Source: a virus
Lineage: Duplodnaviria > Caudoviricetes
DNA: 64,000 nt
IMG/VR virus record: IMGVR_UViG_3300042288_001626
Direction: 5' to 3' (one strand)
The notes under the pieces: model-generated
The model's input: only the letters and a program-made list of their open reading frames with translations
Told to the model about the DNA's origin: nothing
Databases searched by the model: none
In this document: positions 14,732-19,448 of the stretch, piece after piece
How the letters are laid out: each line of letters starts with the position of its first letter
How positions within the stretch are numbered: position 1 is the stretch's first letter
Position numbers and translations under genes: made by a program

Positions 14732-14771
14732 AATAAAAAGCCCCTGCAAGTGGGGGGAGCTTGCAGAGGCT
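14732..14771 (-). terminator. intrinsic terminator closing the AAA/DUF operon
   Basis: Minus strand AGCCTCTGCAAG-loop-CTTGCAGGGGCT followed by TTTTATT. Confidence 0.8.
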
Positions 14772-14782
14772 GTTGGGAGTAC

Positions 14783-15046
14783 TCAGCTTGCGGCTAGGGC
14801 AAACTGATCCTCAATTTTTCTATTCAAGTATTCTCTTTCAGCATCTATAACGAGTCCTCGGACAAGATTGGAGGCAATTACGTTACCTTCAAGATCTGTG
14901 GCTACCCACAGTTGCTGATCGTGATCAAACTCTACATTAGATACACGAGTCACCTGTTTTGCGCCGAGGGTGTTCAATCTATCTACCAGATCATTAGCAA
15001 GACACTGAACATTTCCTTCTCTATCAATATAGATGGTTGCGTTCAT
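14783..15046 (-). CDS. small conserved partner of DUF2997/DUF1257 clusters
   Basis: IYIDREGNVQCL...TRVSNVEFD...W; ATGA overlap with the DUF2997-like gene. Confidence 0.6.
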   Translation of the reverse strand: MNATIYIDREGNVQCLANDLVDRLNTLGAKQVTRVSNVEFDHDQQLWVATDLEGNVIASNLVRGLVIDAEREYLNRKIEDQFALAAS

Positions 15047-15246
15047 CGCTGCTCTAGATGCTCATCAATTTCCAGAGAAATAGGCTCCTCGTATTCTTCT
15101 GTCATTCTACGCGTACTTTCGTCCGCAAGACCCAGAGACTTTTCAATAAACTTTGTAGCCTCTAGACAAGAGGAGCCGTACCCTTCAACTTTATCAATCA
15201 ACACATCTCCATTTTTGCTTATCTTAAATATAATTTGTTTAGACAT
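15043..15246 (-). CDS. DUF2997-family protein
   Basis: IIFKISKNGDVLIDKVEGYGSSCLEATKFIEKSLG...TEEY matches the family pattern. Confidence 0.8.
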   Translation of the reverse strand: MSKQIIFKISKNGDVLIDKVEGYGSSCLEATKFIEKSLGLADESTRRMTEEYEEPISLEIDEHLEQR

Positions 15247-15550
15247 AAATCATCGAATTTCTCAAGAATTTACCGTTCTTGTCATACTTGAATTTAATTC
15301 TTACGGTGTGTTTCTTTTCCATAGGGCAACTCACCACATAGGTAACAGTCGCTTGTGCAGTGTCGGGGGAGTCTGCGTCATCGACTGGCTTGATGTGATG
15401 ATAAGGAATATGCACCTCGCATGGAGTATTTTTTTCTCCTGGAGGGGTCGCAGATTCCTTGGTCAAAATATCTTTAATTGACCTAGCCAACTTTGATTTA
15501 ATTAATTCGAATTCTTTATGTTCAATTTCCATAGTTTTACTTTTCTGCAA
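15239..15550 (-). CDS. hypothetical protein within the DUF operon
   Basis: 103-aa ORF overlapping both neighbours. Confidence 0.6.
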   Translation of the reverse strand: MQKSKTMEIEHKEFELIKSKLARSIKDILTKESATPPGEKNTPCEVHIPYHHIKPVDDADSPDTAQATVTYVVSCPMEKKHTVRIKFKYDKNGKFLRNSMIYV

Positions 15551-16219: not shown

Positions 16220-16221
16220 AA

Positions 16222-17223
16222 CTATACACTCAATTTACGGAAATACTCGCCAGCGACGTTAGCTACATCTGAGGTGTCCTCGGCAGCTTTCACAACATTA
16301 CTAAGATGTGTCTTAAGCAGAGAGATGGCGTCTTTGTTTCCTTCGAAGTCATGCTTACCGTTAAGGAGATTTTCAAGCTTACTCAGCTCAGCCTCCACAG
16401 ACTTGTCATCTGCAAAGTTTGCAGACCTGAACTCCTCTATCTGCCTGTATATTGATCTGATACTTGCTTCGGAGACCAGCTCTTTTTTGGTAATCTTGTT
16501 GAGAACAACACTAAAGTGCTCGGCAATCTTGCCACGCACAGTCTGCGTAACCTCATCCATGAATTGGCTAAGCTTAGAGGAATGCACCTCTAGCTGTTGC
16601 GCATACTCCTGGCGGTACTTCGCAGCAGCCTGCTGCTTTGCTTCGGCATGATCTTCTTCACGACGAATCTCATCCTGCAGGTTCAGCTCATTAAACTCAG
16701 TAGGCAGAGCTATCTCGTAAGAGACAATATCGAAACAGAATTTTTTCGCAATCTTTTCGAGAGGGGGATAATAAGAACTCAAGTCATCCACACTCACAGT
16801 GTCTTTATGGGCGTTATAGTACTCAATAACTTCTCGCTTATAGTCTTCGTACTTTAAAACAAACTCGTCTACCATAGCCAGGTAACCGGCACGGAGCTCG
16901 TTTAACTTCTTATACACTTCAATAAACTTTGTCTTTGGTACGAAGTGAGCTTGAGCAGCCAGCGGAAATGCGAACGAATTTTCGTAGAGGTATTTCCTAG
17001 CCTTCTGCTCATAATTCTTGAACTTGTTGAAGACTGAAGGCTTGATCAACATTTTCTTGCCCAGTTTAATAGTCTCTGGGAGTTGCTTATCTAATTTGAT
17101 GTCTCCTTCAGTCAAGTTATAGGACATTCCCCACATACCGACATGCAGGTTTATAAGTTTCCCATCTTGGAAAACCTTGTTGTAGTGCTGTTGCAGTGTG
17201 GATGACAGTTTGTAATCGGACAT
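16222..17223 (-). CDS. DUF3150-like protein
   Basis: LINLHVGMWG...LGKKMLI...FVP...LNEL...FVLKYEDY...YPP...KF pattern, followed by helical coiled coil. Confidence 0.65.
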   Translation of the reverse strand: MSDYKLSSTLQQHYNKVFQDGKLINLHVGMWGMSYNLTEGDIKLDKQLPETIKLGKKMLIKPSVFNKFKNYEQKARKYLYENSFAFPLAAQAHFVPKTKFIEVYKKLNELRAGYLAMVDEFVLKYEDYKREVIEYYNAHKDTVSVDDLSSYYPPLEKIAKKFCFDIVSYEIALPTEFNELNLQDEIRREEDHAEAKQQAAAKYRQEYAQQLEVHSSKLSQFMDEVTQTVRGKIAEHFSVVLNKITKKELVSEASIRSIYRQIEEFRSANFADDKSVEAELSKLENLLNGKHDFEGNKDAISLLKTHLSNVVKAAEDTSDVANVAGEYFRKLSV

Positions 17224-17245
17224 ATTTATTATTGGTTGGTGTTTG

Positions 17246-18832
17246 TTAGATGTCTTCGTTGCTGATGGCGATAGATAACTTTCTCATGTTTTTTTGTACA
17301 TCTGCTACAGGGTCTCCTTGGGAAGAAACCATGACTAGCTTGCCTTGTGCCTGTCTGCGCATGATTTTCAAATCTTCTTCATGGCTCGTAGCGAACGGAA
17401 TAAACTCAGCCAATACTTCAAGCACGTGAGTATCTGCTACTTCTTCACCAACATCAAACGCTTTATACAGCGCATCTTTAAAAACTTCTTCAATCTCAGC
17501 ACCAGTAAAATTATCTGAACCAGTCACCAGAGTCTTTATGCTGAAATCTTTTGGATTTCTTCCGTATTTCTTAATTACTACATTGAAGATTTCTTTGCGC
17601 TCCTCAGCGTTAGGTAAATCTACCCAGAACAACTGGTCAAAACGACCTTTACGGATCAGGGCGGCAGGAAGCAGAGTATGGTTGTTCGTCGTAGCTACAA
17701 TGAATGCAGGGTTATTGCGGTCATTCAGCCAAGTCAGGAACGTACCGAAGATACGGCTGCTTACCCCACTGTCTCCTCCGCCGGAAACAGCATTGTTACT
17801 TAGAGACTTTTCAATCTCGTCAATAAGAATAACACACTTACCTATAGACTCTACGGTTTTGATAACCTCCCGCATGTTCTTTTCGCTATTACCCACAAGC
17901 GAATCAAAAACACTACCTACATCAAGAGAGAACAAAGGGCAGTCAAACTCTCGAGCGATAGCCTTGCAAATAAGGCTTTTGCCTGTGCCTGGAACACTTG
18001 CAAGAAGCATACCTTTAGGCATAGGAAGTTTGTAGTCTCTGGCAGACTTGGAGTATGCGTTTTTCCTGGCGGTCAACCACTTCTTCAGTCCGGACATGCC
18101 GCCAACATTATCAAACGAAATGTTGGGTTCCATATAAGTAAGCAGACCGTTCTTTTTAAGCTGACTTATTTTTTCTTGAAAGACCGCCTCTACAAACCTC
18201 TGATTAAAGGCTTTTGCGCTGATGTAGGCCATAGCAAAAGCGTTCTCAACCTCGATGTTAGTCATACCTTTCGCTGCTTCAACAGAAGCCTCGACAATAC
18301 CTGTAGAGATTTCGATCAGCGGCTGATTGCTTTCTGCCAACTCCTTATTGATTGAGTTTTTGATAAACATCAAGCGCTCTTCAATAGAGGCGGAATCAGG
18401 TAGAGTATAGTCAAGCAATTGAATTTCCTTAACAAGCTCTCCTGGTACAGCAAACTTATGCCCTACGAAAATAATCATGTTACGAAGCCTTTTAAGCTTG
18501 TTCCATGCATTCCTGAGCAAGCGGATGTTAATTACCTTGTCGAAGTGCAGATGAAAGTCGCGCAGAACAAAAATGTTGTTTGCGTGCTTGTACTTCTGAA
18601 TATACTCTAAAAGATTTACCGTTTGCCTTGTTTCTTCTGGATGGGCGAGCTGATTTTCACCTGCTCTGCACACCAGTCCTTCCTGAGCATCCCATTCATG
18701 GATTGTGATTCCTGGCTCTCTCTCCCTCAGGGTCAGCAGATCTCTTGAAAACCTTGTTTCTTCGTGGGTGAGCACAAATAGACCAGGGTAACAGGCTTTG
18801 TGGTAGTTGTGTATTTTAGTCGTGAAGTCCAT
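17246..18832 (-). CDS. Ycf46-like AAA+ ATPase (degenerate N-terminal AAA plus active C-terminal AAA)
   Basis: N-terminal THEETR...WD...LRDFH...P.EL module; VGGMSGLKKWL, GMLLASVPGTGKS, IDEIEK, ATTN, RKGRFD. Confidence 0.88.
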   Translation of the reverse strand: MDFTTKIHNYHKACYPGLFVLTHEETRFSRDLLTLREREPGITIHEWDAQEGLVCRAGENQLAHPEETRQTVNLLEYIQKYKHANNIFVLRDFHLHFDKVINIRLLRNAWNKLKRLRNMIIFVGHKFAVPGELVKEIQLLDYTLPDSASIEERLMFIKNSINKELAESNQPLIEISTGIVEASVEAAKGMTNIEVENAFAMAYISAKAFNQRFVEAVFQEKISQLKKNGLLTYMEPNISFDNVGGMSGLKKWLTARKNAYSKSARDYKLPMPKGMLLASVPGTGKSLICKAIAREFDCPLFSLDVGSVFDSLVGNSEKNMREVIKTVESIGKCVILIDEIEKSLSNNAVSGGGDSGVSSRIFGTFLTWLNDRNNPAFIVATTNNHTLLPAALIRKGRFDQLFWVDLPNAEERKEIFNVVIKKYGRNPKDFSIKTLVTGSDNFTGAEIEEVFKDALYKAFDVGEEVADTHVLEVLAEFIPFATSHEEDLKIMRRQAQGKLVMVSSQGDPVADVQKNMRKLSIAISNEDI

Positions 18833-19448
18833 GCGATGATATGGGTGTAACTATGAAGTTATTTTTCTTTACTTGCTTGTTAATCTCGGTGTCTTTTACG
18901 TTAAAAAACCCGAGCATGTCTGACATCATTGCACAGCGCAACGAAGTCCCGGTCCTGTTGGCCCGGCTACGGTAATATTGCACCTCAGAAGGATGCATAT
19001 TTTTTTCAATCCAAGAAGCAGCTATCTGAAGAGGGTGTTCTTCAGCAATAGGCTGTACTGCTGGATGGACTGTTGTTATATCAGTAGAAGCCGATATTGG
19101 TCTTCTTGTTACAGTAACTGGTTCCTTTAAGCTCTCGTGAGACTTTATAACGGCAGCTAGCGTTGTCTTATTCTTTGACCCTTTCGGTCTGCCTCTTTTT
19201 TTAGCCTCTGCAACAGGTTGTGCAGCGGCTAGCTCTGGTTGCACATAAACCTTATTCTTTGACCCTTTCGGTCTGCCTCTTTTTTTAGCTATAGGAGCAG
19301 GCTCAGGGGATACTGGAGCTGTATCGGTTTTGGGTTTGTTTTTAGATCCTTTTGGGCGTCCTCTTTTCTTAACAGGGATACAAGCAGAACTACTCGACGT
19401 TGTCTGGGTCTTCTTCTTGTAGCTCCCTTTTCCTAATTTTTCTCTCAT
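18816..19448 (-). CDS. AT-hook DNA-binding protein
   Basis: Three KKRGRPKGSKNK motifs separated by Pro/Ala linkers, then a small helical C-terminal domain. Confidence 0.8.
   Translation of the reverse strand: MREKLGKGSYKKKTQTTSSSSACIPVKKRGRPKGSKNKPKTDTAPVSPEPAPIAKKRGRPKGSKNKVYVQPELAAAQPVAEAKKRGRPKGSKNKTTLAAVIKSHESLKEPVTVTRRPISASTDITTVHPAVQPIAEEHPLQIAASWIEKNMHPSEVQYYRSRANRTGTSLRCAMMSDMLGFFNVKDTEINKQVKKNNFIVTPISSHGLHD
19167..19289. repeat. 39-bp exact direct repeat (19167-19205 and 19251-19289) encoding two AT-hooks
   Basis: cttattctttgaccctttcggtctgcctctttttttagc twice at an 84-nt period; a diverged third copy lies near 19340-19370. Confidence 0.9.

Follow-up and report, generated by a model that had tools for sequence, protein, structure and literature searches.

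The locus studied here raises a simple question, namely whether the small genes surrounding an AAA+ ATPase gene in the early region of a phage genome encode one machine or are unrelated genes that are inherited together. The phage (Duplodnaviria; Caudoviricetes) is IMG/VR record IMGVR_UViG_3300042288_001626, from which a stretch of 64,000 nt, referred to here as the window, was analyzed. The window comes from a phage of roughly 200 kb, its proteins occurring on contigs of up to 201 kb, and near-identical DNA was found in lake-water metagenomes from 18 studies dated 2018 to 2025. From position 19448 down to 14783, the minus strand carries eight co-oriented, translationally coupled open reading frames (ORFs), g1 to g8, of 210, 528, 333, 98, 129 (143 from an upstream GTG), 103, 67, and 87 codons. 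The junctions from g1 to g8 are a 17-nt overlap, a 22-nt gap, a 2-nt gap, a 4-nt ATGA overlap, and overlaps of 14, 8, and 4 nt; the g5/g6 junction becomes a 4-nt gap if g6 begins at its inner ATG. These coordinates and junctions bear out the first-pass annotation of this DNA, which had reported eight co-oriented, mostly overlapping genes of these sizes and had proposed that they form one ATP-driven set. That proposal found support in synteny that persists through rearrangement, in gene fusions, in a predicted complex, and in a common C-terminal tail, but it does not extend to all eight genes, since g1, g4, and g6 are lineage-specific. On balance, we lean toward the view that the stretch encodes one multi-protein AAA+ remodeling machine that travels on mobile DNA.

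Members and distribution of the conserved core

The conserved core appears to consist of only five of the eight genes, those for the AAA+ ATPase, the DUF3150 protein, the DUF1257 protein, the DUF2997 protein, and an 87-aa protein of an unnamed family. The AAA, DUF3150, and DUF2997 assignments, all made earlier from the letters, stood, with Pfam profiles scoring above their curated cutoffs. The 528-aa product of g2 (17246..18832, minus strand), the putative motor, was matched by PF00004 (1.5e-28; 100.3 bits against the Pfam cutoff of 21.2) and by phrog_8638 (4e-122), and its profile match, motifs, and pore loop place it among the classic-clade AAA+ ATPases. After an N-terminal domain of approximately residues 1 to 230, it carries Walker A (GTGKS, residue 282), the pore loop (LVG, 312), Walker B (DEIEK, 338), sensor-1 (TTNN, 381), and the second region of homology (SRH; RKGRFD, 394). 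The best solved relatives of the AAA module are Cdc48/VAT D2 rings (E of 8e-49), and the module aligns with Cdc48 D2. These features strongly support the prediction that g2 is a catalytically intact, Cdc48/VAT-like unfoldase motor of the hexameric type. A search with the N-terminal domain returned bacterial proteins of 495 to 522 aa at approximately 31% identity, and the ESM Atlas feature neighbors of the ATPase were mostly cyanobacterial. The label "Ycf46-like" for g2 is plausible, the comparison being with cyanobacterial plasmid copies (33 to 34% identity over residues 1 to 492).

The 333-aa product of g3 (16222..17223, minus strand) was matched by the DUF3150 profile PF11348 over residues 23 to 220 (4.2e-15; 56.2 bits against a cutoff of 24.9), and all of its 90-plus relatives carry the same domain. 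Its AlphaFold2 model, with a predicted local distance difference test (pLDDT) score of 77, consists of an N-terminal alpha/beta domain (residues ~20 to 175), a long helical C-terminal bundle (~182 to 315), and a C-terminal tail; Foldseek gave no match to this model at an E of ≤0.001, and the VIA-wide search gave only generic four-helix bundles. The 67-aa product of g7 (15043..15246, minus strand) was matched by the DUF2997 profile PF11211 (1.4e-7; 31.7 bits against a cutoff of 24.1) and has the invariant C27 of that family. The fifth member is g8 (14783..15046, minus strand), the 87-aa protein.

The DUF1257 assignment of g5 (15537..15926, minus strand) stood only as distant homology. No direct match to PF06868 was obtained from either start codon at E values of up to 10. 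The start is the ATG at 15926, which is conserved in all relatives and gives a 129-aa protein beginning Met-Ser-His, rather than the upstream GTG. An exhaustive search with a profile of 13 g5 relatives retrieved 182 representative proteins, and among the 82 retrieved homologs that were aligned, 39 were PF06868 proteins (best 2e-38). Ser2 was invariant in this alignment, Met1 and His3 were at least 90% conserved, and nearly all of the profile matches began at residue 1. The ESM Atlas feature search agreed, with 97 of the 100 nearest clusters sharing the DUF1257 (PF06868) family set. An N-terminal Met-Ser-His is the hallmark of essentially all plastid Ycf35 proteins (PMC13060386), and it was also present in 51 of 52 Verrucomicrobiota DUF1257 copies. 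By profile homology and N terminus, g5 is best described as a distant DUF1257 (Ycf35-type) homolog that lies below the Pfam model and is not a Pfam member.

Rearranged versions of the core occur in unrelated phages, on plasmids of Nitrospirota, Bacillota, Actinomycetota, and Cyanobacteriota, and within integrated elements of Verrucomicrobiota. The description as a phage operon was too narrow, since the same core is also found on plasmids and integrated elements, and the expectation that the genes co-occur elsewhere was borne out by the presence of all five families together in unrelated replicons. The 36 IMG/VR contigs of related phages are fully syntenic beside the terminase gene, which is vertical inheritance and proves little. 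Outside this clade, a 116-kb contig (L040) has the full set at 29 to 44% identity. In L044, a terminase-bearing contig binned with Patescibacteria, and in L045, a phage that encodes RecT and DnaB, the DUF3150-like, DUF1257, and DUF2997 genes lie upstream of the ATPase gene and not downstream, and L045 also has a g8-like domain. The isolated Agrobacterium phage JP1 has the order AAA, 243 aa, 63 aa, DUF1257, DUF2997. In the circular 199-kb plasmid of "Candidatus Manganitrophus," the order, in the annotators' names, is JAB, hypothetical, AAA, DUF1257, DUF2997, DUF3150, 84-aa gene. Plasmids of Bacillus cereus, Paenarthrobacter, Geminocystis, and Pseudanabaena have the ATPase and DUF2997 genes, usually with a DUF1257-type gene, and a zeta-toxin gene set interrupts the Geminocystis module.

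A scan of one genome per species, made by alignment of the ATPase alone, yielded 80 best loci, mostly from Verrucomicrobiota and other Planctomycetota-Verrucomicrobiota-Chlamydiota (PVC) bins, on contigs of up to 3.3 Mb. Partners were counted with hidden Markov models (HMMs) of each family in the 49 loci that had at least 5 kb of upstream DNA. The 87-aa family was present in 45 of them, DUF1257 and DUF2997 in 43 each, and DUF3150 in 40. The order in the Verrucomicrobiota-type loci is DUF3150, DUF1257, DUF2997, 87-aa gene, AAA, all co-oriented, with the 87-aa gene always between DUF2997 and the ATPase; the g8 HMM also matched L040 and the N terminus of a 254-aa protein that abuts the ATPase in L045. 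On the Verrucomicrobiota-type copies, the Pfam DUF1257 model passes its curated cutoff. These counts strongly support the view that DUF3150 and the 87-aa protein are obligate companions of the set, as judged from gene content. The set itself is accessory in Verrucomicrobiota, since of 201 genomes sampled from the phylum only 4 contained PF06868. Against 50,697 isolated phage genomes, blastn with the whole stretch and tblastn with the DUF3150 and DUF1257 proteins gave no match; only the ATPase has BLAST-level relatives there. Matches to the ATPase, 741 records in all, include hundreds of enterobacterial conjugative plasmids. One of these, a Klebsiella IncF plasmid (NZ_CP084774; L050, 3686-12642), encodes a 715-aa AAA protein with 31% identity to g2 residues 12 to 465 next to a VWA protein, a DUF1887 CARF protein, a PP2C phosphatase, and a kinase; this locus looks like a different, defense-like system.

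Predicted DUF1257-DUF2997 pairing and the shared C-terminal tail

Two further lines of evidence point to physical coupling among the products. One concerns g5 and g7. A DUF1257 gene followed by an adjacent DUF2997 gene was found in nearly every copy, and the two families also occur as fusions: proteins P0180 and P0252 each contain both Pfam domains, and one Atlas cluster of 193-aa proteins has DUF1257 fused to DUF2997. The g5-g7 complex model scored 0.86, 0.85, and 0.86, compared to 0.01 for the best of three controls. Of 80 solved complexes, 58 reach the mark set for this tool, as do 2 of 110 mismatched pairs; these counts hold only roughly here, since our own alignments were used. The runs shared at least 97% of contacts, with partner pLDDT values of at least 70. 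No similar solved complex is known, and the model therefore does not simply reproduce a known structure. In the model, the first strand of DUF2997 (residues 4 to 9) pairs with the last strand of DUF1257 (residues 123 to 127), and the predicted interface contains DUF1257 residues 1 to 10 and Y97 and DUF2997 residues G13, G24, C27, E35, and G39. These interface residues are the most conserved positions of both proteins; for instance, all 59 Verrucomicrobiota copies of DUF2997 keep its G-x-x-C, as do all 8 of the other lineages examined. The model supports binding of DUF1257 to DUF2997 as a heterodimer, and the fusion proteins agree with it. On its own, the g5 model (pLDDT 95.5) is a small two-layer alpha+beta domain for which the best Foldseek match was the N-domain of spermine synthase (E of 0.07) and the best VIA match was to KA1 domains (Z of 6.9, within the range of common arrangements). 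A profile search of PDB sequences, made alongside these fold searches, gave no match below an E of 0.7.

The other line concerns the C termini. The ATPase ends in ...NMRKLSIAISNEDI, DUF3150 in ...YFRKLSV, and g9, a 115-aa protein encoded directly after the operon (14382..14729, minus strand), in ...HRKLIL. In the ATPase, the motif is MRKLSI (17270..17287, minus strand; residues 516 to 521), followed by a short acidic extension, and in DUF3150 it is the terminal FRKLSV (16225..16242, minus strand; residues 328 to 333). Both motifs are conserved in every clade relative (for the ATPase, 21 of the 21 listed), and G325, Y327, F328, and R329 of DUF3150 are invariant or nearly so in 18 homologs, including distant ones. 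Among 230 window ORFs, R[KR][LIMF] was present in the last 12 residues of 10, four of which are the adjacent g2, g3, g8, and g9. A looser motif, [RK][RK][LIVFM] in the last 9 residues, was found in the Verrucomicrobiota-type loci in 71 of 79 ATPases and 44 of 45 DUF3150 proteins, compared to 0 of 55 DUF1257 proteins and 45 of 1,170 background ORFs. The form of the tail differs between lineages, being RKLS[IV] here, and elsewhere it appears in matched pairs: RK[IL]AA/RRKF-x-LAA in Verrucomicrobiota, GGRTIDF/SGRMIDF in Bacillus, where the second bearer is an HhH protein, and GGRRIDF/GGRTLDL in Paenarthrobacter. As far as these alignments go, the tail co-varies between lineages, changing together in both proteins.

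The fast-evolving gene in the g9 position also keeps the tail. Its body is recognizable by BLAST in only 4 relatives, whereas its end is [H/Y/F/P]R[K/R]L-x-[I/L/V] in 15 of 22 (among these 15, the shorter YRKLS twice and YRKLR once) and HRLLDV in a sixteenth. Since the terminal peptide is kept while the body drifts, and since it co-varies among the proteins of one operon, the shared basic tail (RKL-x-hydrophobic here) is probably a docking label for a common receptor. g9 is accordingly a candidate client or adaptor of the machine. Binding of the tail to a beta clamp is not favored, as the tail is kept in lineages without a nearby clamp gene. Known proteasome activators work on this principle, with docking tails at the C termini of both an ATPase and a second protein. 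In the closest analogy, from mycobacteria, the proteasome ATPase Mpa and the helical activator Bpa both end in GQYL; PAN/Rpt (HbYX) and HslU also use C-terminal tails. By analogy, the module resembles these activators in having a short tail common to an AAA+ ATPase and a helical-bundle protein. It differs in that its motif is basic (R-K-L-x-hydrophobic), that in the ATPase of this phage the motif is followed by a short acidic extension, and that no peptidase is encoded in the module.

Possible role and competing explanations

In the mechanism that we favor, DUF1257 and DUF2997 would form a heterodimer by adding the first DUF2997 strand to the last strand of DUF1257, with the invariant Met-Ser-His N terminus of DUF1257 and the invariant Cys of DUF2997 both placed in the predicted interface. 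The basic tails of the ATPase, DUF3150, and the variable g9 may dock at one receptor site in the complex, either recruiting cofactors or clients to the motor or competing with the tail that the motor itself carries. The machine may then act on DNA-bound or replication- and repair-associated protein complexes while the phage, plasmid, or integrated element establishes itself, replicates, and repairs its DNA, and the tether to DNA would in this phage lineage come from the AT-hook-like protein g1. This DNA-linked role is favored because the recurrent neighbors of the module are replication and repair genes and because the operon opens with an AT-hook-like protein. Among the Verrucomicrobiota loci, 31 have a DnaN-like sliding clamp of 497 aa as a neighbor, 22 an ATP-dependent DNA ligase with a WGR domain, 15 a PD-(D/E)XK nuclease, and 13 a RadC-type JAB protein. 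Elsewhere, a JAB gene lies upstream of the Manganitrophus copy, an HhH protein is encoded ahead of the Bacillus ATPase, and RecT and DnaB follow the L045 copy. Downstream of the operon in the window, on the same strand, are a phosphatase-like gene and genes for a Metallophos (Mre11/SbcD-like) protein (12742-13830), an SMC_N (Rad50/SbcC-like) ATPase (2621-4663), a UvdE UV endonuclease (5264-6187), and a superfamily 2 (SF2) helicase (930-2390), the last four forming a DNA-repair block on the minus strand. The Metallophos gene is conserved beside the module in all relatives.

Several observations weigh against this reading. We infer the DNA-linked role from gene neighborhood alone, and the value of such neighbors is reduced by the fact that phage early regions and plasmid leading regions are rich in DNA-metabolism genes anyway. 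HMMs of the clamp, WGR ligase, PD-(D/E)XK, and RadC proteins of the Verrucomicrobiota loci found no counterpart in the 64-kb window. GrpE and Hsp70 genes adjoin the Pseudanabaena copy, which is a chaperone context and not a DNA context, and 4Fe-4S proteins adjoin the copies of Bacillus, Treponema, and Paenarthrobacter. Neither the DUF1257 nor the DUF3150 model matched a fold of known function in Foldseek or VIA searches. Rather than docking, the tail might serve as a degron or as a patch that binds nucleic acid. Finally, mycobacteriophage Corndog has the ATPase without recognizable partners within 5 kb, as searched with narrow HMMs of g3 to g8, and the motor can therefore stand alone.

The early position of the operon also fits a different purpose, in which, as the first-pass annotation had suggested, the unfoldase would unfold or dismantle a host complex or immune system soon after entry. 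Carriage by mobile DNA only (phages, plasmids, and integrated elements), the sporadic occurrence in genomes noted above, and the fast-evolving, tail-bearing g9, which would suit an arms-race adaptor, are all consistent with host takeover or anti-defense. However, PADLOC found no known defense or anti-defense family for any partner, the recurrent neighbors are DNA-metabolism genes and not anti-defense islands, and Ycf46 and Ycf35 are conserved in cyanobacteria and plastids, where counter-defense makes no sense; we regard this explanation as rather unlikely. The module could conversely be defense, addiction, or abortive-infection cargo, in which an AAA+ ATPase controls a toxic partner as in IetAS or the SgiAT system of SGI1. 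Those systems have similar AAA modules and mobile carriers, g2 is matched by the PADLOC IetA models (1.3e-27) and by NCBIfam IteA, and SgiA has been described as an AAA+ antitoxin of the SpoVK/Ycf46/Vps4 type (PMC10954446). Related ATPases also lie in the VWA/CARF/kinase loci of Klebsiella plasmids, and the zeta-toxin set sits inside the Geminocystis module. Yet the IetA matches are confined to the generic AAA module of g2 (residues 263 to 480), and the N-domain and partner set differ. No subtilisin-like (IetS-like) protease or other toxin-like partner is encoded here, no protease-like partner occurs in any copy examined, so that the locus is not an IetAS-type defense system, and the set is kept in lytic-type jumbo phages beside the terminase gene. 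This makes the cargo explanation quite improbable.

A bolder proposal would make the DUF1257-DUF2997 pair a new enzyme or metal center, in which the exposed Ser-His at the DUF1257 N terminus and the single invariant DUF2997 Cys would meet at the interface, and onto which a Ycf46-type motor and DUF3150 would dock by their tails, much as HslU does on HslV and Mpa and Bpa do on the 20S proteasome. Such an assembly would be a new class of AAA+-coupled machine for degradation or modification, carried by mobile DNA and also found, in the form of Ycf46 plus Ycf35, in cyanobacteria and red-lineage plastids. The conservation of Met-Ser-His and G-x-x-C described above, the location of DUF1257 residues 1 to 10 and DUF2997 C27 in the predicted interface, and the echo of proteasome activators in the tails common to the ATPase and a second protein are all in its favor. 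So is the recurrence of Fe-S partners, which include 4Fe-4S proteins in three plasmid lineages and, in cyanobacteria, the ferredoxin Fed7 beside the DUF2997-Ycf35 cluster (PMC4284462). It is opposed by Foldseek and VIA searches in which the DUF1257 model gave no significant match to N-terminal nucleophile (Ntn) hydrolases, proteasome subunits, or any hydrolase, and by the absence of evidence for ring or chamber formation, and we consider it unlikely. At the other extreme, there may be no machine, only unrelated small early genes co-inherited beside an AAA+ gene. The close-clade synteny could indeed be purely vertical, and g1, g4, and g6 are lineage-specific; against this, the same five families are adjacent despite permuted order in replicons of at least six phyla, two of the families are fused in some genomes, and two share a co-varying tail, and chance co-inheritance is correspondingly very hard to credit. 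A virion-assembly chaperone, suggested by the divergent terminase neighbor, was rejected, since the module is also present on plasmids and integrated elements without virion genes.

The AAA+ remodeling machine that we favor resembles several known systems. One consists of the cyanobacterial and plastid Ycf46, Ycf35, and DUF2997 proteins, which appear to be the same three families, with the Met-Ser-His of Ycf35 and the G-x-x-C of DUF2997 kept here. Like Ycf46, g2 has approximately 500 aa with an N-domain of ~230 aa, and the cyanobacterial plasmid copies compared above lie beside DUF1257 and DUF2997. Unlike the Ycf set, the present one is on mobile DNA and includes DUF3150, the 87-aa family, and tail-bearing proteins. 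In cyanobacteria, the adjacency of DUF2997 and Ycf35 is on record (PMC4284462). In Synechococcus, Ycf46 is reported to belong to a three-gene operon dependent on stress and guanosine tetraphosphate (ppGpp) and to interact with KaiC, and in Synechocystis, to affect carbon uptake (PMC13683863); no functional link between Ycf46 and Ycf35 was found in the accessible literature. Cdc48/p97/VAT, the best solved relatives of the motor, likewise have an intact Walker, SRH, and pore-loop set, and they are general motors that take their specificity from small cofactors and C-terminal tail motifs. However, g2 has one recognizable AAA ring instead of two, an N-domain unrelated in sequence to the double-psi-barrel, a Leu-Val-Gly pore loop in place of aromatic-hydrophobic-Gly, and cofactors unrelated to UBX, Ufd1, and Npl4. 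A further relative is the DUF3150 protein of a Shewanella IncC plasmid (L047, 2676-10156), which lies between bet/exo recombination genes and a VWA protein gene, with a 322-aa AAA protein nearby, so again beside ATPase-linked partners and recombination genes. It differs from g3 in its length (420 aa), in the lack of a basic tail, and in having no DUF1257 or DUF2997 nearby. DUF3150 may more generally partner ATPase systems on plasmids.

What is already known, then, is an ordinary classic-clade AAA+ motor, catalogued DUF families, and the DUF2997-Ycf35 adjacency. The five-gene module, its spread on mobile DNA, the DUF1257-DUF2997 pairing, and the shared tail had no description in the searchable literature, and the system is classed here as an AAA+ remodeler with a novel dedicated cofactor set. 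Genome tables of plastids and cyanobacteria have for decades listed Ycf46 and Ycf35 as orphan reading frames. The mobile operons place these two, together with DUF2997, DUF3150, and the unnamed 87-aa family, in one physically linked set, and this makes testable the binding of DUF1257 to DUF2997, the recruitment to the motor by a C-terminal peptide, and the epistasis expected among the mutants. The module is common, occurring in jumbo lake phages of many lake metagenomes, an Agrobacterium phage, megaplasmids of several phyla, and hundreds of Verrucomicrobiota loci, so that its contribution to the life of mobile DNA deserves attention. Should the target turn out to be a complex for replication or repair, or the small pair an enzyme, this would be a new kind of AAA+ system in bacterial cell biology.

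Terminator, accessory genes, and other features

The operon had been said to end at a clean intrinsic terminator. The hairpin and U-tract are real: an intrinsic terminator was found at 14730..14771 (minus strand), with a GC-rich 12-bp stem (14771-14760 paired with 14750-14739), a 9-nt loop, and then UUUUUAUUUU, and with a predicted folding energy of −19.9 kcal/mol (z of −2.39). With a GC-rich hairpin and U-tract on the coding strand 3′ of the last gene, it is of the Rho-independent type; it is absent from a consensus terminator scan because that scan is limited to loops of ≤8 nt. However, the strand is not silent beyond it. The tail-bearing g9 follows directly, its ATG (14729) adjoining the U-tract, and the 3′ arm of the terminator stem contains AGGGG ~11 nt before this ATG. 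Translation of g9 may for this reason depend on read-through transcripts.

Three genes of the operon, g1, g4, and g6, appear from their distribution to be additions specific to phage lineages, outside the conserved core. The first gene, g1 (18816..19448, minus strand), encodes a 210-aa AT-hook-like protein that has the motif KKRGRPKGSKNK in three identical copies and is folded in its C-terminal part. It scored 14.3 bits against Pfam AT_hook, below the cutoff of 17.4; the three motifs are plain in the translation. It is conserved only in the close phage clade, at 30 to 51% identity. The three motifs are identical letter for letter in the protein, which suggests a recent internal duplication. 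The 98-aa g4 (15923..16219, minus strand) is restricted to phage lineages; it had no Pfam, PHROG, PADLOC, or NCBIfam match, and its homologs were found in the close clade, in L040, and in L042 and were absent from the Verrucomicrobiota loci. The 103-aa g6 (15239..15550, minus strand; 97 aa from the inner ATG at 15532) is missing in five close relatives (L005, L007, L014, L015, and L017), present in L040 and L042, and again absent from the Verrucomicrobiota loci. Searches of PHROGs, PADLOC, and NCBIfam gave no match for any of the small module proteins.

The ATPase gene itself is a target of insertion. In six related phages, the counterpart of window positions 17246-18832 is interrupted exactly in Walker B or Walker A by homing-endonuclease insertions, located at about 7005-7850 in four contigs (L030 to L033) and at about 4921-6046 in two (L034 and L035). 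The Walker B insertion (VILID|EIEK) is ~0.8 kb long with an HNH-type endonuclease ORF of 179 aa, and the Walker A insertion (PGTG|KS) is ~1.1 kb long with a double-LAGLIDADG ORF of 283 aa. The two halves of the interrupted genes lie in different frames, and Rfam found no group I intron in those of L030 and L034.

On plasmids, some neighbors of the module recur. A protein of ~200 aa annotated as "4Fe-4S single cluster domain" lies in or beside the module on plasmids of Treponema, Bacillus cereus, and Paenarthrobacter (L048, 4330-4938; L049, 3074-3715; L136, 7146-7772). These neighbors parallel the cyanobacterial Fed7, and there may be an Fe-S or redox link. On the Pseudanabaena plasmid (L135, 1-5527), GrpE and an Hsp70-family gene stand directly before DUF1257, followed by an ATP-binding protein, a hypothetical protein, DUF2997, and AAA.

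Upstream of the operon, the divergent neighbor is the large terminase gene (19739-21457). The region between the two contains an ORF of 66 aa (19583-19783, minus strand) that is rich in lysine, is present in most relatives at 35 to 49% identity, and overlaps the terminase start on the opposite strand. A promoter-like site with an extended −10 element (19596-19568) lies inside this ORF. Just beyond the terminase gene is a second AAA-domain protein of 379 aa (21454-22593, minus strand; PF00004, 3.8e-10).

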